A DNA stretch of 62,540 nt, the filler included, from Thermodesulfobacteriota bacterium (GTDB taxonomy: Bacteria; DASVDK01), in NCBI GenBank assembly GCA_036381125.1. It is 4 parts of 4 records of this genome, joined end to end, with 100 filler letters (N's around TTAATTAATTAA, not from the genome) between each part and the next. Parts side by side here need not be neighbours in the genome. Positions count along the whole stretch, not along the records: positions 1 to 21,860 come from DASVDK010000221.1; 3 more parts are not named here. One strand, 5' to 3'. The notes below the pieces were generated by a model, which saw only the letters and a program-made list of their open reading frames with translations, was not told the DNA's origin and made no database searches. The translations under genes were made by a program, and so were the position numbers. Positions 1 to 18,505 of this stretch are shown here, piece after piece. Each line of letters begins with the position of its first letter. The first letter of the stretch is position 1.

Positions 1-1271
1 CGGAGCTGGTTCACGAGGTAGCGCCGATAGGACTCCGGCACCCCCTCGGGCGAGTTGGCGACGACGGCGAAGGCGGGCGGCCGCACGCCGAGCTGCGAGG
101 CGTAGTAGAACTTGAGCCGCCGGTTCTTGTAGAAGGGCGGCTCGTTCCGCTCGACGGCCGCCGCGAGGACCCGGTTGAGCTGGCCGGTCGGGATGCGCCG
201 CCTTTGGGCGTCGGCGGCCCGCTCCGCGGCGGCGAGGACGCGGTGCACGCCGTGGCCGGTGGCGGCCGAGCAGAAGACGACCGGCGCGAAGGCGAGGTGC
301 CGGAACCGCTCGCGCACGTGCGCCTCCGCCTCGCGGCGCGCCGTCCGCCCCCTGGGGAGGAGGTCCGCCTTGTTCACGACGATCACGACGCCTCGTCCGC
401 TCTGCTCGGCGTACGCGCCGATCTGCTGGTCCTGGTCGGTGACCCCTTCGGCCGCGTCGACGACCACCGCCGCCACGTCGCAGCGCTCGAGCGCCTTCAG
501 GGCGGCCACGACGCTCACCTTCTCGAGCTTCCCCTCCACCCGCGCGCGGCGCCGGATCCCGGCCGTGTCGACGAGGACGACCGGCCGCCCGTTCCACAGG
601 AGCCGGGTGTCGATCGGGTCGCGCGTCGTGCCCGGGACCTCGCTCACGATGACCCGCTCGTAGCCGAGGATCCGGTTGACGAGCGACGACTTGCCGACGT
701 TCGGGCGCCCGATGACGGCCAGGCGCAGCGCCGCCGCGTCGCCCTCCTCCGGCGCCTCCGCCTCCGCCGGCCCCTCCGGCGGCAGGCGCGCCACCACCGC
801 GTCGAGCAGCGTCTCGATCCCCAGGTCGTGCTCGGCCGAGATCGCCAGGAGCGTGTCGGCGCCGAGCGCCTGGAAGTCGGCCAGCGAGGGGTCGACGTCC
901 TTGCGGTCGGCCTTGTTGACGGCCACGACGACCGGCTTGCCGGAACGCCGCAGGAAGCCGTACACCTCGCGATCGGGCGCCGTCAGGCCGGCCGTGCCGT
1001 CGACGACGAGGATCACGACGTCGGCCTCGGCCACCGCCACCTCCGCCTGGGCGCGCATGAGCGCCGGGATCGGCTCCCGGGAGGCGGGGTCGAAGCCGCC
1101 GGTGTCGATGACCGAGACGCGACGCCCGGCCCACTCGGCCGCGCCGTAGATCCGGTCGCGCGTCACCCCCGGCGTGTCCTCGACGATGGCGCGCCGCCGT
1201 CCGGTGAGGCGGTTGAAGAGGGTCGACTTGCCGACGTTCGGACGCCCGACGATGGCGATGGTGTCACTCAT
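1..1271 (-). CDS. der: Ribosome biogenesis GTPase Der (EngA), runs off window start
   Basis: Not in ORF track; manual translation from ATG at 1271 gives MSDTIAIVGRPNVGKSTLFNRLTG..., DTGG and NKAD motifs, then a second G-domain (VIGRPNVGKSSLVNRILG, DTAGIRR, NKAD); overlaps era stop. Confidence 0.95.
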   Translation of the reverse strand, partial: MSDTIAIVGRPNVGKSTLFNRLTGRRRAIVEDTPGVTRDRIYGAAEWAGRRVSVIDTGGFDPASREPIPALMRAQAEVAVAEADVVILVVDGTAGLTAPDREVYGFLRRSGKPVVVAVNKADRKDVDPSLADFQALGADTLLAISAEHDLGIETLLDAVVARLPPEGPAEAEAPEEGDAAALRLAVIGRPNVGKSSLVNRILGYERVIVSEVPGTTRDPIDTRLLWNGRPVVLVDTAGIRRRARVEGKLEKVSVVAALKALERCDVAAVVVDAAEGVTDQDQQIGAYAEQSGRGVVIVVNKADLLPRGRTARREAEAHVRERFRHLAFAPVVFCSAATGHGVHRVLAAAERAADAQRRRIPTGQLNRVLAAAVERNEPPFYKNRRLKFYYASQLGVRPPAFAVVANSPEGVPESYRRYLVNQL

Positions 1272-4174: not shown

Positions 4175-5253
4175 CGCGCCGCCGCCCGGATCACGCCGCC
4201 CCCGAGGACGACGTCCCCGTCGTAGAACACGCCGGCCTGGCCGGGCGCGACGCCGGCCTGGGGCTCGTCGAAGCGGACGACGGCGCCCCCCTCGGGCGTC
4301 GGCGTGACGAGGGCGGTCGCTCCCGGGTGCCGCGCGCGGATCTTGACGACGGCACGCAGCGGGCCGGCCGGCGGCTCGCCGGAGACCCAGTGCGCCGGCG
4401 CGACCTCGCACCCGGCGCAGAGGAGCGCCGGCCGCGGGCCGACCGTTACGCGGGCCGCGGCCGCGTCGAGGGCGACCACGTACCGCGGCGTGCCGGGCGG
4501 GCCGGCAAGCGGCCCGAGGCCCCGGCGCTGGCCGACCGTGAAGCGGTGCACCCCCGTGTGGCGGCCGACCTCGCGCCCCTCGAGGTCGACCACCGCGCCC
4601 GGTCGCGGCGCCTCGGCGCCGGCGGCGCGCTCGACGAAGGCGGCGTGGTCGCCGTCGGGGACGAAGCAGATCTCCTGGCTGTCCGGCTTGTGGGCCACCG
4701 GCAGGCCGAGCCGCGCCGCCTCGGCGCGCACCTCGGCCTTGGTCATGTCGCCGAGCGGGAAGCGGGCGTGGCGCAGGGCGTCCTGGCCGAGCGGGTAGAG
4801 GTAGTACGACTGGTCCCTGGCCGGGTCCCGCCCCCTGAGCAGCCGGTACGGGCCGTTGCCGTCGACCCGCGCGTAGTGCCCCGTGGCGAGCGCCGTGGCG
4901 CCGAGGCCGCGGGCGAGGGCCAGCATCCGGTCGAACTTGAGGTGGCTGTTGCACGCGACGCAGGGGATCGGCGTGCGGCCGGCCAGGTACTCGCGGACGA
5001 AGGGGACGACGACCGCCTCGCGAAACGCCTCCTCGTAGTTCAGGACGTAATGGCGGAAGCCGAGGTGGTCGGCCACGCGGCGGGCGTCGCCGAGGTCGTC
5101 GGCGGAGCAGCAGCGGGAGGTCTCGCCCGACGGCGTGTAGAGGCGCATCGAGAGCCCGATCACCTCGTGCCCCTCGGCGACGAGGCGAGCGGCCGCGACC
5201 GAGGAGTCGACGCCGCCGCTCATGGCGACCGCGATGCGCGCGCGCGTGGCCAT
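4171..5253 (-). CDS. mnmA: tRNA 2-thiouridine(34) synthase MnmA
   Basis: [14 protein letters not shown]-loop, [33 protein letters not shown]. Confidence 0.97.
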
Positions 5254-5275
5254 CGGCGCCCCCGTTGCGGCCCGC

Positions 5276-6433
5276 CTACGCGGCGCCGGCCGGGGCGAGA
5301 GCGCGCAGCCGCTCGACGATCGCCGGCAGGACCTGCGCCACGTAGTCCACGTCCTCGTCCGTCGTGCCGTAGCCCAGGCTGAGCCGGACGCTTCCCTGCG
5401 CCGCCTCGCGCGTGAGCCCCATGGCGAGGAGGACGTGCGAGGGGTCGATCGATCCCGCCGCGCAGGCCGACCCGGACGACGCCGCGACGCCCTCGAGGTC
5501 GAGGGCGAGCAGGACCCCCTCCCCGTCCACCCCGTGGAAGGTGCAGTTCAGCGTGTTCGGCAGCCGCGGCGACCCGGCGCCGTTCACCTCCGACCGCGGG
5601 ACCATCTCGAGGAGCCGGGCCTCGAGGCGGTCGCGCAGCGCCGCCACGCGCGCCGGCGCCCCCTCGGCGAGGCGGCGGGCCGCGAGCTCCGCCGCGGCGC
5701 CGAGGCCCACGATGCCGGGCACGTTCTCCGTGCCGCCCCGGCGCCCCCCCTCCTGGCTGCCACCGGTCTGCTGGGCGGGAAGGCGAACGCCGCGGCGCAC
5801 GATCAACGCGCCGATCCCCTTCGGGCCGTTGAGCTTGTGACCGGACAGCGACAGGAGGTCGATGCCGATCGTCCGCATGTCGACCGGCACCTTCCCGACC
5901 GCCTGGGTGGCGTCGCAGTGGAACAGGACCCCGCGCGCCCGGCAGATGCGCGCCACCTCCGCCACCGGGAAGAGCACGCCGGTCTCGTTGTTGGCGAGCA
6001 TCACCGAGACGACGCGCGTGTCGTCGGTGATGGCCGCCTCGAGCGCCCCGAGGTCGAGGGCGCCCGTGCGGTCGACGCCGAGCCGGGTCACCCGGTGGCC
6101 CCGCCGCTCGAGGGCGTCGCACGTCGCCAGGACGGCGGAGTGCTCGACCGCGGTGGTGACGATGTGGCAGCCCGGCTCGCGCTCCGCGATGCCGCGCAGC
6201 GCAAGGTTGTCGCTCTCGGTGGCTCCGCTGGTGAAGATCACCTCGACCGGATCGGCCCCGACGAGCGCCGCGACCGCCTCACGGGCGCGGTTCACCGCCT
6301 GCCGCGCGGGACGCCCGGCGAAGTGGTGGCTCGAGGCGTTGCCGAAGGCCTCGCCGAAGAACGGCAGCATGGCCGCAACGACCGAGGGGTCGACCGGCGT
6401 GGTGGCGTTGTGATCGAGGTACACAGCCCGCAT
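5276..6433 (-). CDS. iscS: Cysteine desulfurase (IscS/NifS family)
   Basis: [39 protein letters not shown] (PLP Lys), SSGSAC. Confidence 0.93.
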
Positions 6434-6466: not shown

Positions 6467-6850
6467 TCAACGAAGCCGGGCAGATGCGCGTGCGATCGCC
6501 TCGACCTCGGCCACGTCGAAGGGCTTGCGCACGACCGCCGCCGCGCCGAGGGCGCGGCTCTCGCGAAGAATCCCTTCGTCCACCGCCGCCGTGACCATGA
6601 CCACGGGAACCCCGCGGCTCCTGGCGCCGAGGCGGCGCAGGAAGTCGAGCCCGCTCTCGCCCTGGAGCCGGATGTCGAGGAAGACCAGGCTCGGCGCGGT
6701 GCTCTCGAAGAGGCGCAGCGCGGCATCGACGTTCGCGGCGTGCCGGAGATCGAACTCGTCGCCGAGGAGGACGTCGAGCGCCTCCCGGACGCCGCGGTCG
6801 TCCTCGACGATCAGAATGGGGCCCCGCTGCGGGGCGACTGCGGTCACCAT
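6467..6850 (-). CDS. Single-domain response regulator (CheY-like receiver)
   Basis: ILIVEDD...VFLDIRLQGESG...VMVTA...KPF; no output domain; ATG 6850 lies just downstream of a sigma54 promoter. Confidence 0.88.
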   Translation of the reverse strand: MVTAVAPQRGPILIVEDDRGVREALDVLLGDEFDLRHAANVDAALRLFESTAPSLVFLDIRLQGESGLDFLRRLGARSRGVPVVMVTAAVDEGILRESRALGAAAVVRKPFDVAEVEAIARASARLR

Positions 6851-6863
6851 GAGGCCGCGGCTG

Positions 6864-6879
6864 AGCAAGAAGGGTGCCC
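6864..6879 (-). promoter_or_regulatory. sigma54 (-24/-12) promoter of the single-domain receiver gene
   Basis: Minus strand GGGCACCCTTCTTGCT matches GGCAC-N5-TTGCW; nearly identical to the element at 10866-10881. Confidence 0.75.
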
Positions 6880-7018
6880 TCGGGCCCGACCCGGGGAAGT
6901 CCCCGAAGTTCCACGGTCGAGGCTGCAACGTCCGTTACCCGCTGCCTTGCGCCCGGTGCAGCGCGGCGTGCCGACTGCACAGCGCGGTGGGCACCGCCGC
7001 CGGACGCCGCCCGAACCG

Positions 7019-8881
7019 TCAGCTCGCCGCGGCAACCGGCAGCGTGATCACGAACAGAGTTCCCGCGCCGACCGTGCTCTGGACCGTGATGAGCCCGCCG
7101 TGCTCCTCGACGATCTTGTGCGTCAGCGCGAGCCCGAGACCGGTCCCTTTGGCCTTGGTCGTGAAGAAGGGGTTGAAGAGCTGGCTCACCGTCTGTGCGT
7201 CCATCCCGGCGCCCGTATCGGCGACGCGCACCTCGATCGCCCTGGCGCCCGACGGCAGGCGGGTGGCGGCCGGACCGGTGGCGACGACGACCCGCCCGCC
7301 GGAGGGCATCGCCTCGATCGCGTTCACGACGAGGTTCGAGAACGCCCGCAGGAGATACTCCGCGTCGGCCCGCGCGGCGGGCAGTGCCGGGTCGAGCCTG
7401 GGGTCGCACTCGATGCCGCGCTCTTCCATCTGTCGGCCGTAGAGGTCGAGCACGCGCCGGATGAGCCCGTTCACGTCGGTCGCCGCGAAGCTCATCCGCG
7501 GCGCGCGCGCCAGCTCGAGGAGGTTCTCGACGATGCCGTTCACCCGGTCCAGCTCGCGTGGGACCGTCACGTTGAACTTGTCGCGAAACGCCACGTTGTC
7601 GAACTTCCGGGGGATGAGCTGCACGAAGGTCTTGATGGCGGCGAGCGGGTTCTTGATCTCGTGGGCGAGCCCGGCCGACATGGTGCCGAGCGCGGCCAGC
7701 CGGTCGGCCCGGCGCATTCGCGCCTCGAGCGCCTTGATCTCGGTGAGGTCGCGGAAGAGGACGAGCAGCCCCAGCCTCGCCCCCTGCGGATCGCGCAGCG
7801 GGGCCGTCGAGACCCCGAGCGGCAGCGTCCCGCCGGGCGCCTGGTACTCCACCTCGGCGTGACCGACCACCTCGTCGCCCTCGAGCCCCCGGCGGATGAG
7901 CTGCTCGAGCGGGGCGCCGGCCGGCACGATGCTCTCGAGCGGCGGCCGGTCGGCCACGCGCTCGGCCGGGATCCCGAGGAGCGTGGCGCCGACACGGTTG
8001 ATGGTGACGACGCGGCCGTCGAGGTCGACGGTGAGGAGCCCCTCGTCCATCGACCGGAGGATGTCCTCCTGGTAGCGCCGCAGCGCGTCGACGAGCGCGA
8101 GGTTCTGGACGAGCGCCTCCTGCTTCGCCGCCAGCTCGGCGCTCATGTGGTTGAACGCCGTGGCCAGCGCCTCGAGCTCGTCGCCGGTGCGGATGTCGAG
8201 CTGGAGCCCCACCTCCCCCTTCGCGAGCCGCCGCGCCCCGGCGGCCAGCTCGGCGACCGGCCGCGTGATGCGGCCGACGAGGACCTGCGCGTAGGCGAGC
8301 CCCCCGAGGAGCGCGATCAGGCCGATGGCGACGAGCGCCCCCCAGGTGCGGCGCACCTCCACCTCGAGCGGCTCGAGCGAGAGGCCGATCCGTACGGTTC
8401 CCCACCGCTCCTCCGATTCCGCGAAGCGGACCGGCACCGCCACGTCGAGGACCCGCTCCTCGACGCCGGTGTCGGGCGAGCGCCACCTGGTCGTCTGCAC
8501 CAGGACGTCGTTCGCGGCGTCGACCGCGCGGCTGACCGGGTCGTCCAGGCGGGTGCCCTGCAGGTGGTCCTGGCCGCTGTAGGCGGCGACGATGTGCTCC
8601 TTGTCGAGGAAGATGACGTACCGGACGTCGGCCTCGCGGGCCGCCTTCTCGGCGTACTGCTCGAGGGCGATGTAGTTGTAGGTACGCAGGGCGGTGTCCG
8701 CCGTCGCCGCGAGGTTGTTCGCGACGGCGCGCGCACGCTTCTCGGCCTCCGTGCGGATCAGGCGCGTCTCGCGCCAGGCGACGAAGGCGACGACCGCCAG
8801 CGTGAGGCCCGCGACGAGGACCAGGAGCGAGAGGAAGACCCGGCGCGCGAGACCGGCCGGCTCCCCCGCGGTGCTCAGCAT
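7019..8881 (-). CDS. Sensor histidine kinase (TM-periplasmic sensor-TM-HAMP-PAS-HisKA-HATPase)
   Basis: Two TM segments, HAMP (ITRPVAEL...DELEALATAFNHM), PAS, H-box LAHEIKNPL, N/G boxes NLVVNAIEA, DTGAGM, FFTTKAKGTGLGL. Confidence 0.95.
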   Translation of the reverse strand: MLSTAGEPAGLARRVFLSLLVLVAGLTLAVVAFVAWRETRLIRTEAEKRARAVANNLAATADTALRTYNYIALEQYAEKAAREADVRYVIFLDKEHIVAAYSGQDHLQGTRLDDPVSRAVDAANDVLVQTTRWRSPDTGVEERVLDVAVPVRFAESEERWGTVRIGLSLEPLEVEVRRTWGALVAIGLIALLGGLAYAQVLVGRITRPVAELAAGARRLAKGEVGLQLDIRTGDELEALATAFNHMSAELAAKQEALVQNLALVDALRRYQEDILRSMDEGLLTVDLDGRVVTINRVGATLLGIPAERVADRPPLESIVPAGAPLEQLIRRGLEGDEVVGHAEVEYQAPGGTLPLGVSTAPLRDPQGARLGLLVLFRDLTEIKALEARMRRADRLAALGTMSAGLAHEIKNPLAAIKTFVQLIPRKFDNVAFRDKFNVTVPRELDRVNGIVENLLELARAPRMSFAATDVNGLIRRVLDLYGRQMEERGIECDPRLDPALPAARADAEYLLRAFSNLVVNAIEAMPSGGRVVVATGPAATRLPSGARAIEVRVADTGAGMDAQTVSQLFNPFFTTKAKGTGLGLALTHKIVEEHGGLITVQSTVGAGTLFVITLPVAAAS

Positions 8882-10502: not shown

Positions 10503-10578
10503 CGAGATGGCCTCGCTCCCGGTCGGGGGACCCGACCCGTGCGATGGCCGCGCGGGTCGGTTCCCCAGGAGGGCCGCG

Positions 10579-10608
10579 ACGTTACCCGCGTCACGCTCGG
10601 GGTGTCAA
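10579..10608 (-). promoter_or_regulatory. Putative sigma70 promoter for the solute-binding protein gene
   Basis: TTGACA-N18-TAACGT, immediately after the upstream terminator. Confidence 0.6.
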
Positions 10609-10612
10609 GGGC

Positions 10613-10647
10613 AAAAAAAATGACGGCCCCGGGAGAGTGACCGTCAT
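10613..10647 (-). terminator. Rho-independent terminator of the small peptide gene
   Basis: Minus strand ATGACGG...CCGTCAT stem followed by a run of T. Confidence 0.8.
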
Positions 10648-10703
10648 GCTGCAGATGCAGCCAGGAGAACTGGAAGATCAGGCTTGACGAAGCTCGAGGA
10701 AGA

Positions 10704-10805
10704 CTAGACGCCGCCGCCGCCCTCCGCGAGCGCCGGCAGCACGTACGCGGCAACCGTGGCGCCCGTAACGAACAGCGTGACGAGAACTCTGCGCAGACCC
10801 TTCAT
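10704..10805 (-). CDS. Unannotated 33-aa secreted peptide precursor MKGLRRVLVTLFVTGATVAAYVLPALA-EGGGGV
   Basis: GGGGAGG SD upstream of ATG; basic n-region, hydrophobic h-region, Pro then A-L-A signal peptidase site; flanked by its own sigma54 promoter and terminator; below the ORF-track length cutoff. Confidence 0.8.
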   Translation of the reverse strand: MKGLRRVLVTLFVTGATVAAYVLPALAEGGGGV

Positions 10806-10865
10806 CTCTCAACCCTCCCCAGGAAGCCATGCACGTGGAGCAAACCGGAATCGCCCACTGGCCTG

Positions 10866-10881
10866 AGCAAGGAGGGTGCCA
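10866..10881 (-). promoter_or_regulatory. sigma54 (-24/-12) promoter of the peptide gene
   Basis: TGGCACCCTCCTTGCT is a perfect TGGCAC-N5-TTGCW match; predicted TSS ~10855. Confidence 0.85.
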
Positions 10882-10918
10882 CCATTGCCGCGCCGCACCA
10901 TGGCGGGCAGGACGTCCG

Positions 10919-10931
10919 TAAACTATTGTTA
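10919..10931 (-). promoter_or_regulatory. Putative IHF binding site upstream of the sigma54 promoter
   Basis: TAACAATAGTTTA, one mismatch to WATCAA-N4-TTR, inside an isolated AT-rich patch. Confidence 0.55.
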
Positions 10932-11113
10932 TATCTATGGATTCTCCGAGCGGTGCCGAAGGCCGCCCGATGGCCGGGGTGCGAGGTGCCCAGCCGCCCG
11001 TGCAGCCCCCCTCGGCCGGACGCCTGGCCCGTACGCGAATCGCCGCGCCACGCGTGCTCCAGCGCACAACTGCCACGGAAACTGTGCAATGCCCTGTGGA
11101 GTGTGCAGCCGTG

Positions 11114-12613
11114 TCAGCGGAGGACTGGCGGGACCGGAACGGCCGGCGTGTCCTCGTCGTCGGGGTCGGCTTCGCCCGGCCCGAGGGTCCGTCGGTCGGC
11201 CGTCGAGAGCGCCTCGGCGCGGCGGCGGCGGCCGATCTCGCCGAGGTCTTCCCGGATGCCCAGCTCGTCGAGCTTGGCCATGAGGGTATTGCGGTGGATG
11301 CCGAGGATCTGTGCGGCCCGGCTCTGGTTGCCGCCGGTGTCCTCGAGGATGCGCAGGATGTAGCGCCGCTCGAAGCTCTCCCGCGCCTCCTTGAGCGTCC
11401 AGCGCTCGCCGGCGTCGGTTGCCGGCAGCTCGACGGCGCGGTCGAACAGCTCGGCCGGCAGCTCCTTGACGGTGATGAGCTGCTCGCCCGGGGCGAGGAC
11501 GACGAGGCGCTCGACCATGTTCTCGAGCTCGCGGATGTTCCCCGGCCAGGCGTACCGGCAGAGCACGTCCATGGCCTTGGCCGAGAAGCCGGGCACGCGC
11601 TTGCGGAAGCTCCGGGTGAAGCGCCCGAGGAAGTGCTCGGCGAGGAGCGGGATGTCCCCTCGCCGCTCCCTGAGGGGCGGCAGCGAGATCGGCACCACGT
11701 TGAGCCTGAAGTAGAGGTCGCTGCGGAAGAGCCCCCGGCGAACCGCCTCGGCGAGGTCGGTGTTCGTGGCGGACACGATCCGCACGTCCACCGGGATGGT
11801 CCGCGGGCTGCCGACCCGCTGGATCTCGCGCTCCTGCAGGACGCGCAGGAGCTTGGCCTGCAGGCTCATGGGGAGGGTCGCGATCTCGTCCAGGAACAGG
11901 GTGCCGCCGTGCGCGAACTCGAACTTGCCGATCTTGCGCTCGTACGCGCCGGTGAACGCCCCCTTCTCGTGGCCGAAGAACTCGCTCTCCATCAGCTCCT
12001 GCGGGATGGCGGCGCAGTTGACGGCCACGAAGGGCGCCGCCCGGCGCGGGCTCTCGCGGTGGATCGACCGGGCGATCAGCTCCTTGCCCGTCCCGCTCTC
12101 GCCCGTGATGAGCACGCTCGAGGTCGTCTGGGCCACCTTCCGCACGAGGCCGAAGATCTCGAGCATGCGGGGATCGCGCGAGACGATGTCGCCGAAGGTG
12201 CGGCCGGCAAGCTCGCTCCTGAGGAACGCGACCTCCCGCTCGAGGGCCTGCTTGGCGATGATCTTCTCGGACAGGGCGAGGAGGTCGTCCGGCGCGAAGG
12301 GCTTGACCAGGTAGTCGTAGGCCCCGAGCTTCATCGCCGCCACGGCCTTCTCGGCCGTGTTGACCGCCGACACCATCACCACCTCGACCGAGGGGTCGAG
12401 CATCTTGATGTCGGAGAGGACGGCGAGCCCGTCCCGGCCCGGCATGGTGATGTCCAGGAAGACGATGTTGACCGTGACGGTGCGCAGGACCTCGAGGGCG
12501 TCGCGGCCGTTCTCGGCCGAGAAGGTCTGGTAGTGATCCTCGAGCGTCAGCTCGATGGCCTGGCGAACGGCGGGCTCGTCGTCGACGACGAGGACGACGG
12601 GCTTGAGGTCCAT
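11114..12613 (-). CDS. sigma54-dependent response regulator (REC-AAA+-Fis HTH, NtrC/AtoC family)
   Basis: REC (VVDDE...FLDITMPG), GESGTGKE, ESEFFGHEKGAFTGA, FLDEI, WPGNIRELEN, HTH NQSRAAQILGIHRNTL. Confidence 0.96.
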   Translation of the reverse strand: MDLKPVVLVVDDEPAVRQAIELTLEDHYQTFSAENGRDALEVLRTVTVNIVFLDITMPGRDGLAVLSDIKMLDPSVEVVMVSAVNTAEKAVAAMKLGAYDYLVKPFAPDDLLALSEKIIAKQALEREVAFLRSELAGRTFGDIVSRDPRMLEIFGLVRKVAQTTSSVLITGESGTGKELIARSIHRESPRRAAPFVAVNCAAIPQELMESEFFGHEKGAFTGAYERKIGKFEFAHGGTLFLDEIATLPMSLQAKLLRVLQEREIQRVGSPRTIPVDVRIVSATNTDLAEAVRRGLFRSDLYFRLNVVPISLPPLRERRGDIPLLAEHFLGRFTRSFRKRVPGFSAKAMDVLCRYAWPGNIRELENMVERLVVLAPGEQLITVKELPAELFDRAVELPATDAGERWTLKEARESFERRYILRILEDTGGNQSRAAQILGIHRNTLMAKLDELGIREDLGEIGRRRRAEALSTADRRTLGPGEADPDDEDTPAVPVPPVLR

Positions 12614-12620
12614 GGAGAAG

Positions 12621-12649
12621 GGATTACCGCGGCCCCCAGGGGCTGTCAA
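12621..12649 (-). promoter_or_regulatory. Putative sigma70 promoter, 7 nt before the activator ATG (leaderless)
   Basis: TTGACA-N17-TAATCC-cttctcc-ATG. Confidence 0.55.
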
Positions 12650-14822
12650 ACGCGGGCAGGCGGACCCGGAAGACCGTCCCCTGCGCCAGCTCGCTCTCCA
12701 CCGTCACGGTCCCCCCGTGGGCCTCGACGATCTTCTTCACGATGGCGAGCCCGAGCCCGGTGCCGCCGTGCTTCCGGGTGGAGGATCCGTCCACCTGATA
12801 GAAGCGATCGAAGATCTTCGGCAGGTGCTCGGGCGGGATGCCGATGCCGTCGTCGGCCACCGCGATCTCCACCTCGTGCGCCGCGTGCCCCACCGCGTCG
12901 GCCGGCAGGATGGCGGCCCCCGCCCCGCTCGCGACGAGATCGGGTGCCAGCGCCTCGGTCGGCGCCGCGGCCACGGCCCGCACCGTGAGCGTGACGTGCC
13001 CGCCGGCCGGGGTGAACTTCACGGCGTTGCGCAGGAGGTTGGTCACCACCTGCATGAGCTTCGCCCGCTCCCCCCGGATGTCGGGGAGCCCTCGCGGCAC
13101 CGTGAGCGCCAGCTCGACCCCCTTCTGCTTGGCCAGCGGCTGGACCTCCCCGAGGCTGCTCTCCACCAGCTCGCCGGTCGTGACCCGCTCGAGCCTCGGG
13201 ACGTACTTGCCGACCTCGAGCCGCGTCAGCTCGAGGAGGTCCTCGATCAGGGTCTTGAGCCGGTCGGTGCTCTTGCGCATGGCCATCATGCAGTCGAGCT
13301 GGGCCGCGTTGAGCTCGCCGATCTCCTGGCTCACGAGGAGGTCGAGGTAGCCGACGATCGGCGAGATCGGCGTGATCAGCTCGTGGGAGATGTTCTGGAT
13401 GAACTCCCCCTTGAGCCGGTCGAGCTCCTTCAGCTCGTCGTGCGCCCGCGTCAGGTTCGAGAAGAGCTGCGCGTTCTCGAGGGCCACGGCGGCCTGGTTG
13501 GCGAGCGTGCCGAGCGTCTCGAGGTCCTCGCTCGAGTACGGGGTGCCGTCCGCGCGGGCGCCGAGGGCGAGGACGCCCGAGAGCCGGTCCTTGACCGCGA
13601 GGACGACCCCCACCTGCGCGTCGTTGGCCTCGAGCCAGGTCCCCTGCGCGACGCGCCGCGCGTCGGCGATCGGGCTCAGGAGGTCCTGGCGCACGAGGAT
13701 CCGCTCGGCCCCGCTGAAGCGCCGCTCCCACCCCTCGGGCTGGGGTGCGAGCGGCCTCAGGCCGACGCCGGCCTCGTACACGACCCCCGGCTCGCGATCG
13801 CCGATGAGCGCGAGCACGACACGCGGGCTCTCCATGGCGCGGCTCACCGTCTCCACGATCTTGCCGAGCAGCGTCCCGAGGTCGAGGATCGTCGTCATGG
13901 ACCGCGAGAGGTCGCGCAGGCTCTCGAGGTAGGCGTAGCGGCGGCGGAAGAGCGTCTGCTCGATCGTCTGCTCGGTCTTGAGCTTGAGGCTCGGGAAGAG
14001 GAGCGCGATGAAGAGGAACAGGACCGACATGACGAGCGAGAAGAGCAGGTTCACCTGGCCGAAGAAGAGCTGCTGCGCGATGATCGCGACGCCGAACGCC
14101 GGCAGGATCACGAGCACGGCCAGCGCCGTGAGGGTCAGCGACTTCTTGAGCACCAGCGTGATGTCCATGAGCTGGTACTTGAGGATCGCGTAGCCGAGCA
14201 CGGCGCAGTACAGGAACATGAAGTAGTTCCCGTACGGCACGATGTGGATCCCGAACATCGGGAGGAAGTTGGTCGACCCCCCGGCGAACCCGATCGCCGA
14301 CCCGACGATGACGTAGCGCGTCTGCGCCTTCTTGAGGCCGGTGACCTCGATGTGCGCGCGGACGAGCTGGAGCGTCGCCTGCGCGACGATGAAGACGTAG
14401 AAGGTGAGGAACACCGGGTAGAGCGGGCCGGCCTGCGGGAAGAAGGCGAACTCGCTGACCCGGTCGACGCGCGGGATGAAGGGGGGCGTCAGGGCCAGCA
14501 CGAAGAAGAGCACCGAGCAGACGTACGACGCGTCGAGCAGCCGGCTCTCCTCCCGCCGGCCGGTGAGCACCATGATGAAGTGCAGGTAGAGGGTCGGGAT
14601 GAAGGCCGCGGCCAGGTGGGCGAAGCGGCTCCACCAGAGCGCCGCCCCGGGGCTGTCCGCCAGGCTGTGCAGGAAGAGCGCCAGCGACCAGAGGCCGACG
14701 ACGGCCGACAGGAGCGAGAAGACCCGGTTCAGGCGGCTCTTGGCGTTCCGCCAGAAGACGAACGTCCCCAGCGCGATGCAGGAGATCGCCGTGAGCAGCG
14801 TCGAGGCGGAGTAGACGATCAC
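12624..14822 (-). CDS. Membrane sensor histidine kinase (multi-TM HisKA_7TM-like N-terminus, GAF, HisKA, HATPase)
   Basis: ~280 aa polytopic N-terminus; GAF (YSSEDLETLGTLANQAAVALENAQL); H-box ISHELITP; NLLRNAVKFT, DDGIGI, GGTGLGL; GGAGG SD before GTG. Confidence 0.93.
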   Translation of the reverse strand: MIVYSASTLLTAISCIALGTFVFWRNAKSRLNRVFSLLSAVVGLWSLALFLHSLADSPGAALWWSRFAHLAAAFIPTLYLHFIMVLTGRREESRLLDASYVCSVLFFVLALTPPFIPRVDRVSEFAFFPQAGPLYPVFLTFYVFIVAQATLQLVRAHIEVTGLKKAQTRYVIVGSAIGFAGGSTNFLPMFGIHIVPYGNYFMFLYCAVLGYAILKYQLMDITLVLKKSLTLTALAVLVILPAFGVAIIAQQLFFGQVNLLFSLVMSVLFLFIALLFPSLKLKTEQTIEQTLFRRRYAYLESLRDLSRSMTTILDLGTLLGKIVETVSRAMESPRVVLALIGDREPGVVYEAGVGLRPLAPQPEGWERRFSGAERILVRQDLLSPIADARRVAQGTWLEANDAQVGVVLAVKDRLSGVLALGARADGTPYSSEDLETLGTLANQAAVALENAQLFSNLTRAHDELKELDRLKGEFIQNISHELITPISPIVGYLDLLVSQEIGELNAAQLDCMMAMRKSTDRLKTLIEDLLELTRLEVGKYVPRLERVTTGELVESSLGEVQPLAKQKGVELALTVPRGLPDIRGERAKLMQVVTNLLRNAVKFTPAGGHVTLTVRAVAAAPTEALAPDLVASGAGAAILPADAVGHAAHEVEIAVADDGIGIPPEHLPKIFDRFYQVDGSSTRKHGGTGLGLAIVKKIVEAHGGTVTVESELAQGTVFRVRLPAFDSPWGPR

Positions 14823-14873
14823 GGCCGGCCCTCCGTCGTGTCCGTGCCCGTCACATGGCCGCCATCATAGCGA

Positions 14874-15602
14874 CTAGGCGATCTCCTGGGGATCGGGGTG
14901 CCCGGCGGGCGCGGCGACGGCGCGCTTGGGCATCGGCCAGAACGCCCAGTTCTCCCGCTGGAAGCGCCGGTAGTCCTCGCCGAAGAGCTCGAGCAGGCGG
15001 CGCTCCTCGAGGTAGCTGCGCAGGACCTGGAGGTTCACGTTGACCAGCAGCGCGAAGACGAGCGTGTACCAGGAGTTGGTCGCCAGCGGGATCCCCACCA
15101 CCTCGAGGAAGACGCCGCAGTAGATCGGGTGCCGCATGAGCCGGTAGGGCCCGGTGCGGACGAGCCGCCGGGGCACGTGCAGCTTGTTCTCGCCGAGGAT
15201 GTGGATGCCCCACTGGGGCCCCAGCGTGATCATCCCCCACCAGCGCAGCACGAAGGCCAGGCCGTAGAGGAGGAGCCCCGCCGCCGTGGCCGGCCAGAGG
15301 ATCGCCCGCTCCATGAAGAAGAACTCGAAGGTCGTGCCGTACATCATGATGATGTAGGCGGCCGACACGGCGGCGAGCGACCAGTCGCCGGACAGCGTGC
15401 GCGGCTCCCGTTCGTTCGTCGTGAAGAAGTTCTCCCAGAGCCGCTCGCTGCCGGCGAAGAGCAGGAAGAAGGTGAAGAACGTGTACGAGTGCTCGCGCCG
15501 CGTCGAGTACTGGGAGAAGTGCAGGTAGATGACGATCGCGAGCCCCACGATGGACACGAGGATCAGGAGCGGGATGACGTTGAGTCGACGAAGCGGTCTC
15601 AT
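14874..15602 (-). CDS. Isoprenylcysteine carboxyl methyltransferase (ICMT/PEMT) family membrane protein
   Basis: Multiple TMs; LVRTGPYRLMRHPIYCG and EERRLLELFGEDYRRF motifs; ATGA overlap with the ketosynthase stop. Confidence 0.88.
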   Translation of the reverse strand: MRPLRRLNVIPLLILVSIVGLAIVIYLHFSQYSTRREHSYTFFTFFLLFAGSERLWENFFTTNEREPRTLSGDWSLAAVSAAYIIMMYGTTFEFFFMERAILWPATAAGLLLYGLAFVLRWWGMITLGPQWGIHILGENKLHVPRRLVRTGPYRLMRHPIYCGVFLEVVGIPLATNSWYTLVFALLVNVNLQVLRSYLEERRLLELFGEDYRRFQRENWAFWPMPKRAVAAPAGHPDPQEIA

Positions 15603-16882
15603 GCGCTCCTCGCACCGTTGCGGCGCACGATGAGGGTCACGTTGCTGCCCCCGTAGCCGAACGCGTTGGCGAGAACCGTCCGGAGCCCCGGGGCCGGGCG
15701 GGCCTCGCCGGCGACCACGTGGACGTCGCAGTCCGGATCGGGGTCCTCGAAGTTGATCGTGGGGGTGATGACGCCGTGCTCGAGCATGAGGGCGCTGGCG
15801 ATGACCTGCAGCGCGCCCCCTGCCGCGAACGGCTGCCCCACCATCGACTTGATCGACGTGACCGGGACGGTGGCGCCCCGCGGACCGAAGACCTCGCGGA
15901 TGGCCGAGCACTCGTTCCGGTCGGTGAGCGGGATCGAGCCCGCGTGCGCGTTCACGAGGTCCACGTCGTCGGGCCCGAGGCCCGCGCTTTCGAGCGCGAG
16001 CGACATGCAGCGCGCGAAGCCGTCGCCGTGCGGGTCGACGCGGATCATCTCGTACGCGTTGGCCGTCGTCGCGTAGCCGGCGACCTCGGCGTAGACGTGG
16101 GCGCCGCGCGCGAGCGCCCGATCGAGCGCCTCGAGCACGACGACGCCGGCCGCCTCCGCCATGACGAGGCCGTCGCGCCCCCGGTCGAACGGCCTCGAGG
16201 CGCGCTCCGGCTCGTCGTTGCGCGTCGACAGGATCCGCGCGCTGGCGCCCGAGCCGATGCCGAACGGCGTGACCGGCGCCTCCGCGCCGCCCGCGAGCAT
16301 CGCGTCGGCCAGGCCGCTCGCGACCGCCTCGGCCGCCCATCCGATCGCGTTCGAGCCGGCCGAGCAGCCGGTCGACATCGTCATGAGCGGCCCCTTCGCG
16401 CCGCTCCGGATCGAGATCAGGCCGGCGGCCGCGTTCGGGAAGGCCGCCTCGAGGATCCAGGGGGGCAGCCGCCTGAGCCCCCGCTCGAGGTAGAGCGAGT
16501 AGGCGTACTCCGTGATGTCGAGCTGGCTCGTGCCGACCCCCATGGCGACGCCGACACGCGTGGCGTCCGCCGGGTCGATCGCGAACTTCGCGTCGGCCAT
16601 GGCGAGGGTCGCCGCCGCGGCGGCCAGGTGCACGGCCCGCCCCGAGCGGCGCAGCGTGACCGGGTCGAGGAACGCGGCCGGGTCGAAGTCACGGATCTCC
16701 CCGGCGATCCGGCAGGCGAGCCCCGAGGCGTCGAACCGCGTGATCGGGCCGATGCCGCTGCGTCCCGATACGAGCCCGGTCCAGAACGCGTCGCGCCCGA
16801 CGCCGATCGGCGTGACGGGGCCGAGCCCCGTGATGGCGACCCGCCGCCGCGCCGCACGCCGACCGTTGCCGTTGACCCCCAC
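15599..16882 (-). CDS. Beta-ketoacyl synthase (FabF-like) with Cys-His-Gln triad
   Basis: RRVAITGLGPVTPIG, STGCSAG, SRPFDRGRDG, NAHAGS, KSMVGQPFAAGG, NAFGYGGSN. Confidence 0.9.
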   Translation of the reverse strand: MGVNGNGRRAARRRVAITGLGPVTPIGVGRDAFWTGLVSGRSGIGPITRFDASGLACRIAGEIRDFDPAAFLDPVTLRRSGRAVHLAAAAATLAMADAKFAIDPADATRVGVAMGVGTSQLDITEYAYSLYLERGLRRLPPWILEAAFPNAAAGLISIRSGAKGPLMTMSTGCSAGSNAIGWAAEAVASGLADAMLAGGAEAPVTPFGIGSGASARILSTRNDEPERASRPFDRGRDGLVMAEAAGVVVLEALDRALARGAHVYAEVAGYATTANAYEMIRVDPHGDGFARCMSLALESAGLGPDDVDLVNAHAGSIPLTDRNECSAIREVFGPRGATVPVTSIKSMVGQPFAAGGALQVIASALMLEHGVITPTINFEDPDPDCDVHVVAGEARPAPGLRTVLANAFGYGGSNVTLIVRRNGARSA

Positions 16883-16958
16883 CGACGCTCACCCCCTTGG
16901 CGTCGACGCGCCGGCGGGCCCGATCGGGCCTCCGCCGGTCGATTCCGCAAGCCGAGGC

Positions 16959-16987
16959 ACGCTACCGGAGCCGGCCCGACCAGGCAA
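16959..16987 (-). promoter_or_regulatory. Putative sigma70 promoter of the KS-ICMT operon
   Basis: TTGCCT-N17-TAGCGT with an AT-rich GAAAATTTTC element just upstream. Confidence 0.5.
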
Positions 16988-17042
16988 GGAAAATTTTCGG
17001 CGGACGGGTCACATGAACCCATCTCGGGCTGCCGTGCCCGCT

Positions 17043-17690
17043 TCAGCGGTGCGCGCGGCCGCAGCGCGTGTCGGGCGCCGCCGCCGCGAAGGGCCCGACT
17101 GCCGCCGCCGTGGACGGGCCGACCCCCGGCACACGGACGAGCGCCTGCACGGACGTGAAGGGGCCGCGCCTGGCGCGGTCGGCCACGATCCGCGCGGCCA
17201 GGACCGGTCCGATCCCCGGCAGACGGTCGAGGTCGGCCGCGGCATCGGCGTTGAGGTCGAGCGGCAGGCCGAGCCGCAGCCGCCGGACCGCCGGCATGCA
17301 GCCGAGCGCCGCGCGGCCGGTCGGCGTGACGAGGAGGCGGGAGCCGGGCAGCAGCCTCGCCCGGGCGCTCCGCGAACCCGCCACCGGCGTCCCGGCCGGC
17401 AGGCCCGCCGCGGCGAGGAGGTCGGCGAGCCGCGCGCCGGCCGGCAGCGCCACCAGGCGGGGCCGGTCCCCGACCCGAACGACGTCGACCAGGATGCGCA
17501 TGGGGTCCGGTTCGAGGAGTGGGGCTGCGGCGCGGGAGTTCCGGGATGCCGGCGCCACTGCGGTCTGGAGTGGCGGCCGCCTCGCCCCGTCGCTCGATCC
17601 CCAGCCGGCGGCGGCCCGCCACCCGGCCGCGGCGCCGAGGATCGCCAGCGTCAGCGCCGCCGCCGCACCGATCGGTCCCGACCAGGCCAT
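17043..17690 (-). CDS. ComEA-family helix-hairpin-helix DNA-binding protein
   Basis: N-terminal TM; LDLNADAAADLDRLPGIGPVLAARIV...GPFTSVQALVRVPGVG HhH repeats. Confidence 0.82.
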   Translation of the reverse strand: MAWSGPIGAAAALTLAILGAAAGWRAAAGWGSSDGARRPPLQTAVAPASRNSRAAAPLLEPDPMRILVDVVRVGDRPRLVALPAGARLADLLAAAGLPAGTPVAGSRSARARLLPGSRLLVTPTGRAALGCMPAVRRLRLGLPLDLNADAAADLDRLPGIGPVLAARIVADRARRGPFTSVQALVRVPGVGPSTAAAVGPFAAAAPDTRCGRAHR

Positions 17691-17908: not shown

Positions 17909-18505
17909 TCAGTTGCATGGCGGCACGTCGCCGAAGAGTGCGGTGGCAAGATCGCCGGGTACACGATCCAGGCGGCGTTGCAGGTGCCTGGGGAGCCGGA
18001 GGCACTCCTGGTTCACCAGGCGGACCAGGTTCCGGATCCTGAGCCACTCGCGTCGGGACCAGCCCGATGGCCCGCTGGACCACGAGAGTACCGCCTGGAT
18101 CCCCATGATCTGCTCCGCCCACTCTTCTTCGGTCAGGATCTCCTTGTCCGGGTAGGGGTTGCTCTTCGGATCCCGAAGCTGCGGCACGATCGGCTTGCCG
18201 ATCTCGAACGGCTGGAGGCGAATCACCCGGCCGTTCATGGCCGCTCGGCGCGAGGCCGCCTCCCGCGGGTTGAAGCGTGGCCCGTAGCCGAACTCGGGAT
18301 CCTGATAGTTCGCGAACGACTCGGGCCAGTAGCCGGGCTTGAAGATGACCAGTCCAGGGTCGTACAGGTCGAGCCACTTGAACCAGGGGCGCCACTTCGG
18401 CCCCCACCCCGGAATCCGATAGCGCCCCTGGGCATCGGTCACCGCCTCGCGCACCTCGAGCCGCTCCTTCGCGTGGCCTTCCAGCGGCTGCGCGAGGACC
18501 CACTA
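17909..18505 (-). pseudogene. 5'-truncated exported/carboxypeptidase-regulatory-like domain protein remnant
   Basis: WVLAQPLEGHAKERLEVREAVTDAQGRYRIPGW...IFKPGY is preceded by an in-frame TAG (18503-18505); no proper start or signal sequence. Confidence 0.5.

Follow-up and report, generated by a model that had tools for sequence, protein, structure and literature searches.

What does a ketosynthase that lacks one of its two catalytic histidines do when its gene stands in front of genes for a membrane methyltransferase and a polytopic histidine kinase? This question is raised by a locus in the metagenome-assembled genome of a Thermodesulfobacteriota bacterium (GenBank assembly GCA_036381125.1, called G000 here), which comprises 4.33 Mb on 382 contigs with roughly 72% G+C. 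The stretch of DNA that we analysed (the window) is 62,540 nt long and is joined from several contigs of this genome; positions 1-21860 are the single contig C221, positions 21961-47582 are contig C223, and the joins are not biological. On the minus strand of C221 are genes for a FabF-derived ketosynthase (KS) that is a paralogue of FabF (15599..16882, 427 aa), a polytopic membrane methyltransferase assigned by Pfam to the ICMT/PEMT family (14874..15602, 242 aa), a sensor histidine kinase (12624..14822, 732 aa), and an NtrC-type sigma-54-dependent response regulator (11114..12649, 511 aa). Here we report that the KS belongs to a lineage in which the second catalytic histidine is fixed as glutamine, and that the methyltransferase and the kinase recur as a pair across phyla together with enzymes that handle acyl chains. 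The three proteins very probably act as one unit linked to lipids, and we propose more tentatively that they make and sense a methylated lipid.

All of the sequence data come from metagenome-assembled genomes. Since the phylum-level group in our genome collection consists of G000 and its congener G001 only, comparisons were drawn from other phyla.

The ketosynthase has a Cys-His-Gln active site

The window KS contains both domains of the two-domain ketoacyl-synthase fold (PF00109, 167.3 bits; PF02801, 111.9 bits), and its best solved relatives are KAS II enzymes (1e5m, E 1.3e-110). With the NCBIfam fabF model TIGR03150 it scored 446.5 bits, which is under the equivalog cut-off of 493.75, and it cleared the looser subfamily model NF005589 (436.7 against a cut-off of 387). 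The genuine fabF of G000 is on contig C172 and scored 657.6 bits with TIGR03150. The window KS is a second copy in addition to this gene and is not located in a fab cluster.

A preliminary description of the locus had stated that the KS keeps the catalytic cysteine (STGCSAG) and the first histidine (NAHAGS) and has KSMVGQPFAAGG at the site of the second histidine. Translation of the open reading frame (ORF) confirmed this. Housekeeping FabF has a Cys-His-His triad, whereas the window KS has Cys173-His313-Gln350, with Lys345, Asp321, and Glu324 conserved. In terms of E. coli FabF, the fold and length are common to both proteins and the equivalents of Cys163, His303, Lys335, Asp311, and Glu314 are kept, whereas His340 is replaced.

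A protein cluster search (5.8 billion) placed the window KS in a tight clade of 13 proteins (P0001-P0013) with 70-100% identity, the next relatives being at about 50%. All 13, which come from several sources, have GQPF at the second-histidine site. In an alignment of 119 rows, from which P0014 (543 aa, with an internal duplication) was dropped before counting, residue 350 was glutamine in 13/13 clade rows; in the 106 other FabF matches it was histidine in 105 and glutamine in one (P0015). The possibility that the glutamine is a sequencing error or a private mutation was rejected because all clade proteins carry GQPF. In this small lineage, Gln350 is an old feature kept by selection. A literature search aimed at Cys-His-Gln ketosynthases found none in print.

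The clade has 34 specific substitutions that are fixed at positions at least 85% conserved across the 106 other FabFs. In E. coli FabF numbering, which we obtained with a constant offset of 10 from PDB match ranges anchored on C163, H303, H340, and F400, these include H340Q, T305G, T307I, D265N, P272V, and F400Y. The last five sit in or beside both gating loops and the histidine pocket; neither the GFGG gate of FabF (Phe400) nor its loop 2 (Asp265, Pro-Pro) is preserved, with F400Y, D265N, and P272V fixed in the clade. An excerpt of PMC7138838 describes the roles of C163, H303, H340, F400, and the gating loops in E. coli FabF and gives K65, R68, K69, R127, K128, and R206 as the basic residues that contact the acyl carrier protein (ACP). 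Because five of the six equivalent positions in the window KS are basic (V75, R78, R79, R137, R138, R216), its substrate is, judged from these residues, still likely to be an ACP-bound acyl chain.

The methyltransferase and the sensor kinase

The stop codon of the KS gene and the start codon of the methyltransferase gene overlap as ATGA at 15602-15599, in agreement with the translational coupling that had been suggested for this pair. By coordinates, an overlap of this type is also found in L033 and L019, which are both of the related loci that span the KS-ICMT junction. There is a gap of 51 nt between the stop codon of the methyltransferase gene and the start codon of the kinase gene, and the regulator gene overlaps the kinase gene by 26 nt. 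The preliminary description had seen no ACP or fab genes next to the KS gene. Pfam annotation revealed none on the whole 21.9-kb contig C221, and the window cassette has no ACP, ketoreductase (KR), dehydratase (DH), or enoyl reductase (ER).

The methyltransferase matched the Pfam families ICMT (PF04140; 53.1 bits against a gathering threshold of 24) and PEMT (55.4 bits). Its score with the NCBIfam isoprenylcysteine methyltransferase model was 46.9 against a cut-off of 160, and the MddA and LmtA models also appeared among its NCBIfam matches. The cluster search retrieved 23 relatives at E ≤1e-3, eight of which are 79-91% identical and three 39-49% identical. The motifs of this subfamily are ERxWETFFTSKE, LGxQWxIH, RHPIY, and EE. 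In 26 rows, H158, P159, E199, and E200 never vary, and the conservation of R157 and Y161 is at least 90%; we take RHPxY and EE to be the cofactor-site motifs of the ICMT family. The best solved relative is the carboxyl methyltransferase Ma-ICMT (4a2n), matched by the profile with an E value of 1.8e-19 over profile positions 35-219, which covers the whole fold. The five-helix fold is shared over its full length with Ma-ICMT and with beetle ICMT (5vg9/5v7p), and RHPxY and EE are kept. The subfamily differs from the solved ICMTs in an additional N-terminal segment, which has a distinct conserved motif (ERxWETFFTSKE...GDW), and, in contrast to isoprenylcysteine carboxyl methyltransferase, a prenylation context is not evident at the window cassette.

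The kinase is predicted by Pfam to consist of a HisKA_7TM domain (PF16927, 78.8 bits) followed by GAF, HisKA (52 bits), and HATPase_c (111.6 bits) domains. PF16927 spans residues 9-222, and the sensor has no sizeable extracytoplasmic domain. HisKA_7TM is mentioned in two census-type papers, and an excerpt of one of them lists it among sensor domains with no ligand named.

The methyltransferase-kinase pair recurs with variable partner enzymes

An alignment of the ICMT relatives was scanned against metagenome contigs and one genome per GTDB species, which gave 14 and 4 loci, respectively. L021/L022/L034, L023/L035, and L032/L036 are near-duplicates among these 18 loci, and L033 is from G001. A HisKA_7TM kinase gene comes directly after the ICMT gene in 14 of the 18. 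Three loci (L019, L026, L029) end at a contig edge before the kinase position, and the sole exception is L020, where an unassigned ORF follows the ICMT gene. A KS is encoded within 1.2 kb upstream of ICMT in 13/18 loci. Outside the window clade, the cassette KS is a longer protein (about 560 aa) with a fused REC domain at its N terminus, as predicted by Pfam; this REC domain retains the acidic pocket, the acceptor Asp, Thr, and Lys. An Epimerase/NAD_binding_4-type reductase is encoded between KS and ICMT in four loci. The slot of the KS gene is taken in L026 and L027 by a REC gene and two genes for 4HBT_2 hotdog thioesterases.

A profile search (E ≤1e-25) matched the ICMT subfamily in 25 of 301 Omnitrophota genomes. 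We annotated 20 Omnitrophota loci from 19 genomes, with flanks of about 6 kb that were shorter where a contig ended. The kinase gene is immediately after the ICMT gene in 13/20 of these and on the same strand within about 6 kb in 19/20. L082 encodes a single 617-aa protein (4276-6129, minus strand) with an N-terminal ICMT and a C-terminal KS with Cys-His-His; a NAD_binding_4 reductase gene is upstream of this fusion, and genes for a 7TM kinase and a REC-REC protein are downstream. The order of genes is KS, 81-aa ACP, ICMT, KS, and kinase in L083, and KS, B12-binding radical-SAM enzyme, ICMT, and kinase in L084. A class I methyltransferase is found beside ICMT in L085 and L076 and is fused to it in L076, which also encodes a REC-thioesterase fusion. 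Larger sets are present in L075, L078, and L081, with a KS that resembles a chain-length factor (CLF) and lacks the cysteine, a FabG-like reductase, ICMT, a standard KS, a FabA-like dehydratase, and a nitroreductase or FAD oxidoreductase. In the other cassettes, REC proteins are encoded downstream of the kinase.

The constant pair is thus ICMT and the 7TM kinase, and the variable partner always handles acyl thioesters or acyl chains. Co-occurrence of the KS with ICMT and kinase genes in other genomes had been named as a check on the idea that KS, ICMT, and polytopic kinase form one lipid-related unit. The counts given above supply it, and the idea is well supported by this synteny and by the ICMT-KS fusion in L082. 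We therefore consider it very probable that KS, ICMT, and kinase function together as a single unit linked to lipids.

Some of the Omnitrophota loci contain further genes. L075, L078, and L081 also encode a class I methyltransferase or nitroreductase and an FAD amine-oxidase-like enzyme, and a conserved protein of about 350 aa with no Pfam match is encoded directly after ICMT. In L079 (2115-10839), an Aminotran_1_2 enzyme (407 aa) and three proteins with no Pfam match are encoded upstream of the ICMT-kinase pair, and REC and GAF-HD genes are downstream.

Catalytic residues, fusions, and trees of related ketosynthases

Catalytic positions were compared in 21 cassette KSs and 17 database relatives, the latter picked by eye from 48 shorter proteins among the best 150 clade-profile matches. 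The REC-KS fusions have Cys-Tyr-His in 9/9 rows (eight distinct sequences), and the KS encoded between ICMT and the kinase in L083 (L083_811) has Cys-Phe-Gln. The CLF-like partners L075_3949, L078_4012, and L081_6159 have no cysteine. Among the database relatives, the second-histidine site is occupied by glutamine in P0015, P0148, P0191, P0207, P0215, and P0245, by asparagine in P0256, and by methionine in P0249.

The best 150 matches, from 1.84 billion representatives, include proteins in which Pfam predicts a KS fused to a signalling domain: REC in P0228, PilZ in P0188 and P0271, PocR in P0176 and P0257, and PocR-GGDEF in P0194 and P0197. Our literature searches gave no KS fusions to REC, PilZ, PocR, or GGDEF in the titles and abstracts retrieved. 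In each of these proteins, the signalling domain is N-terminal and the triad is Cys-His-His.

We built a 64-row tree (quick IQ-TREE run, midpoint root) that left out multi-domain polyketide synthases, double-KS proteins, and P0014, and that kept every sixth FabF match. Housekeeping FabFs formed a clade of 19 rows with support of 100 in the SH-like approximate likelihood ratio test (SH-aLRT); this clade includes the fabF of G000 and excludes the window KS. A 35-row clade (SH-aLRT 98) contains the window clade, all single-KS cassette enzymes, ICMT-KS, and the REC-KS cassette fusions. It also holds the PocR-KS and PocR-GGDEF-KS proteins and one of the two PilZ-KS proteins (P0271), with P0228 and P0188 outside. 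In an earlier quick tree of 55 rows, the window clade and the REC-KS fusions were sisters (SH-aLRT 91).

The response regulator and a putatively sigma-54-dependent peptide gene

The response regulator contains REC (PF00072), Sigma54_activat (PF00158, 243.6 bits), and HTH_8 (PF02954) domains, and its translated sequence shows GAFTGA and Walker A motifs, as in NtrC-type proteins. It is not AtoC, NtrC, or PrsR itself because it scored below the cut-offs of all named equivalogs. The PrsK/PrsR system linked to PEP-CTERM was considered and rejected; the regulator scored 439.8 bits against a cut-off of 502.6, and no PrsK was among the best 25 of 82 kinase matches.

A sigma-54 promoter, TGGCACCCTCCTTGC (10867..10881, minus strand), with 0 mismatches to TGGCAC-N5-TTGC is located 233 nt downstream of the regulator stop codon. 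The window has no other 0-mismatch match, and the 4.33-Mb genome has 21 in all. About 60 nt downstream of it is the start codon of an ORF for a 33-aa hydrophobic peptide (10704..10805, minus strand) with the ribosome-binding site GGGGAGGG. The peptide gene is about 300 nt beyond the regulator gene. It is followed by a predicted intrinsic terminator (10612..10647, minus strand) with an 11-bp hairpin and U8, which was found by folding; a consensus terminator scanner did not list this hairpin. The peptide starts with MKGLRR, has one predicted membrane helix, ends in EGGGGV, and contains no cysteine. Because it lies downstream of the regulator gene, between a sigma-54 promoter and a terminator of its own, the peptide gene looks like an output, and it is the probable output of the sigma-54 regulator. 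There is no paralogue of the peptide in G000. The DNA of the peptide region (10560-11300) was not found in G001 (95% complete, 630 contigs), where the sole match, 40 nt inside a TonB-like gene, is spurious. No inverted repeat of the activator type was found between the regulator gene and the promoter.

On the other side of the cassette, a 160-nt spacer (16883..17042) separates the KS gene from a ComEA-like HhH gene (17043..17690, minus strand). This spacer contains no sigma-54 site at ≤3 mismatches to the extended consensus.

An AT-rich patch, AAACTATTGTTATATCTATGGATT, occurs at 10915-10945 between the regulator stop codon and the sigma-54 promoter in this 72% G+C genome; DNA might be bent there. 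A second sigma-54-like site, GGGCACCCTTCTTGCT (6864-6879, minus strand, 2 mismatches), resembles the peptide promoter and is upstream of a REC-only gene that comes after a gene for an sCache-HAMP-PAS histidine kinase (genes 6467-6928 and 7019-8881). On the plus strand of contig C59 of G000, a perfect sigma-54 promoter, TGGCACATCTGTTGC, occurs twice in identical form, at offsets 41981 and 42961 (980 nt apart), and each copy precedes a gene for a protein of roughly 170 aa with a signal-peptide-like start.

The other genes on C221 encode RNase III, MnmA, a NifS-like protein, a second two-component pair, a peptide-binding SBP, a LeuA/CimA-like synthase, and aspartate kinase. Three ORFs, at 17909-18454 (minus strand) and at 175-663 and 676-1149 (plus strand), have a third-position G+C of 0.86-0.98 and no Pfam match.

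A model for the cassette and its alternatives

We suggest that the cassette may be a lipid-linked two-component system with a constant core of ICMT and 7TM kinase and one or more variable acyl-thioester enzymes, represented here by a single Cys-His-Gln KS. The KS would dock an acyl-ACP, and the acyl chain would be loaded onto Cys173. The second half-reaction would be a restricted condensation, or a transfer or hydrolysis that frees a lipophilic carboxylate such as a beta-oxo or 3-hydroxy fatty acid. It is not expected to be ordinary elongation, because one histidine has been exchanged, neither Thr305 nor Thr307 is retained, and the malonyl/phosphopantetheine pocket and both gates are remodelled. 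Because thioesterases fill the KS slot in sister cassettes, the simplest common denominator would be a lipophilic carboxylate or a short condensation product that goes to the membrane. At the membrane, the translationally coupled ICMT would methylate the product of the KS, most simply to a methyl ester if it acts as its carboxyl-methylating relatives do. The HisKA_7TM-GAF kinase may then sense the methylated lipid or the membrane state that it produces, and may phosphorylate the NtrC-type regulator, which would turn on the sigma-54 promoter of the 33-aa peptide gene; the adjacency of the genes suggests this wiring. In the Omnitrophota cassettes with REC-KS fusions, or with REC and thioesterases, the phosphorelay probably acts directly on the enzyme. 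Taken as a whole, the chain from an acyl-thioester-derived lipid through methylation by ICMT to sensing by the 7TM kinase is a tentative reading of these sequences, which we place slightly short of an even chance.

Several observations weigh against this reading. Cys-His-His is kept by the KSs of L082, L073, and L084, by L083_2852, and by partners of CLF-like proteins (for example L075_8055). Because several cassette KSs keep the triad, the cassette does not require loss of the histidine. The earlier suggestion that the histidine pair matters is itself supported by the parallel losses (Cys-Tyr-His in 9/9 REC-KS rows, and Cys-Phe-Gln). Asparagine is the hydrogen-bond donor in Cys-His-Asn condensing enzymes. 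Normal decarboxylative condensation by a Gln-type KS is possible because glutamine could act in the same way, and P0256 has asparagine at the site. The ICMT family also takes in enzymes that methylate nitrogen, sulfur, and phosphate, and the PEMT score of the window protein matches its ICMT score; for these reasons carboxyl methylation is the leading guess only, drawn by analogy. A single origin of the cassette KSs is no more than plausible, because both trees were short searches with midpoint roots and long branches. The REC-enzyme fusions indicate that the signal flows from kinase to enzyme, which fits a homeostatic loop as well as it fits autoinduction. Finally, the arm formed by the regulator and the peptide was seen in this window only; the other cassettes, where small ORFs were not searched, showed no combination of an NtrC-type regulator and a peptide gene.

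A homeostatic loop of the DesK/DesR kind would involve no diffusible signal. The 7TM kinase would read a property of the bilayer and adjust the KS, and with it acyl chains, and also ICMT/PEMT-like methylation of bulk lipid. Control would pass through phosphorylated REC-enzyme fusions or, in this genome, through the sigma-54 regulator and the small membrane peptide. A sensor with no sizeable extracytoplasmic domain would suit this role, and REC-KS and REC-thioesterase fusions place enzymes downstream of the kinase. The PEMT score (a phospholipid methyltransferase family) is as high as that for ICMT, and the output, a small hydrophobic peptide under sigma-54, is like that of envelope-stress regulons. 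However, standard catalysts would be expected for bulk remodelling, yet many cassette KSs have lost a catalytic histidine. The upstream enzymes also differ between close cassettes (thioesterases, KS/CLF pairs, a radical-SAM enzyme, an aminotransferase like alpha-oxoamine synthases), which is more like diversifying small-molecule pathways, and the distribution of the cassette over Omnitrophota genomes is patchy. We regard homeostasis as possible and rather doubtful.

It is unlikely that the KS is instead a competent, specialised condensing enzyme in which glutamine simply replaces the second histidine, making an unusual fatty acid or polyketide lipid that is tailored by ICMT while the two-component system only regulates transcription of the operon. 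In favour of this reading, the cysteine, His313, Lys345, Asp321, and Glu324 are conserved in the window KS. Asparagine is the third residue of KAS III-type triads, which makes the asparagine of P0256 a further point in favour, and the larger cassettes, with ACP, KR, DH, and a KS/CLF-like pair, have a working type II system. The window cassette, by contrast, has no ACP, KR, DH, or ER of its own, and its KS gene has no sigma-54 site in the spacer upstream. In addition, the linkage between kinase and ICMT is much closer than one would expect of a generic regulator, and the fusions of REC, PilZ, and PocR to KSs point to post-translational control. The preliminary description had offered as another alternative that the KS and ICMT acylate or methylate the 33-aa peptide to give a lipopeptide signal. 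Apart from the proximity of the peptide gene, which brought this idea up, our results gave it no support: with a sigma-54 promoter and a terminator of its own, the peptide gene forms a separate transcription unit, the peptide has neither a cysteine nor a CAAX-like end for an ICMT-type reaction, it has no paralogue in the genome, and REC proteins take the place after the kinase in other cassettes. We consider this alternative very improbable.

Comparison with known systems and significance

A methylated lipid sensed by a kinase, as in the reading that we tentatively prefer, has a precedent in Ralstonia. Excerpts of PMC8578825 and PMC11960443 describe that in the phc system the methyltransferase PhcB makes methyl 3-hydroxymyristate and the kinase PhcS senses it. 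As far as the excerpted account goes, the likeness is in logic only, in that the gene for a methyltransferase making a methylated fatty-acid-type signal accompanies those for a membrane histidine kinase and for response regulators. To our knowledge, PhcB is not an ICMT-family membrane enzyme, and we know of no KS or thioesterase partner, REC-enzyme fusions, or HisKA_7TM sensor in phc. In CqsA/CqsS of Vibrio and LqsA/LqsS of Legionella, a synthase that uses acyl chains is encoded beside a polytopic kinase that binds an alpha-hydroxyketone signal. The Aminotran_1_2 enzyme of L079 belongs to a superfamily that includes the alpha-oxoamine synthases, whereas the synthase type in the window is different (KS and ICMT). 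DesK of the DesK/DesR membrane-fluidity system is a kinase with a sensor of membrane helices only, and it controls transcription of a desaturase. An all-membrane sensor coupled to a lipid-modifying enzyme is common to both, but here the enzymes are a KS, ICMT, or thioesterases, frequently as REC fusions, and a GAF domain is present in the kinase.

Non-elongating KS domains (KS0) have lost part of Cys-His-His. Likewise, chain-length factors are described, in an excerpt of bioRxiv 10.64898/2026.05.19.726425, as KS-fold proteins with partial loss of the triad and a non-elongating role. The window KS differs from CLF and KS0 in that it retains the cysteine and one histidine and has no partner KS gene beside it; CLF-like partners are found in some cassettes.

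We found no published link of ICMT, KS, and histidine kinase in the literature, and no published description of the cassette. From the sequences, it appears to be a circuit of lipid synthase and membrane sensor kinase assembled from parts that are unrelated, as far as compared, to the known examples. A broader proposal, which we offer as speculation and think unlikely to hold in full, is that the FabF-derived KS clade consists of output enzymes of signal transduction that are fused to REC, PilZ, PocR, PocR-GGDEF, or ICMT or are linked to 7TM kinases. In this proposal, ICMT would methyl-cap their products and HisKA_7TM would read the resulting lipids, giving a self-contained, species-diversifying class of autoinducers in uncultured phyla (Omnitrophota and the two-genome lineage of the window), and loss of the histidine would be the sign that a new reaction has replaced elongation.

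The conserved partnership of the HisKA_7TM kinase with ICMT and acyl-chain enzymes provides a concrete, testable candidate class of ligands for this sensor family. KSs fused to REC, PilZ, PocR, or GGDEF would mean that a condensing enzyme is under the direct control of phosphorylation and cyclic di-GMP. The Cys-His-Gln, Cys-Tyr-His, and Cys-Phe-Gln active sites are natural experiments on each catalytic histidine of KAS I/II-type enzymes. If the product is a diffusible methylated lipid, the cassette would mediate cell-to-cell signalling in phyla that have no cultured model and that are thought to be closely associated with other cells.

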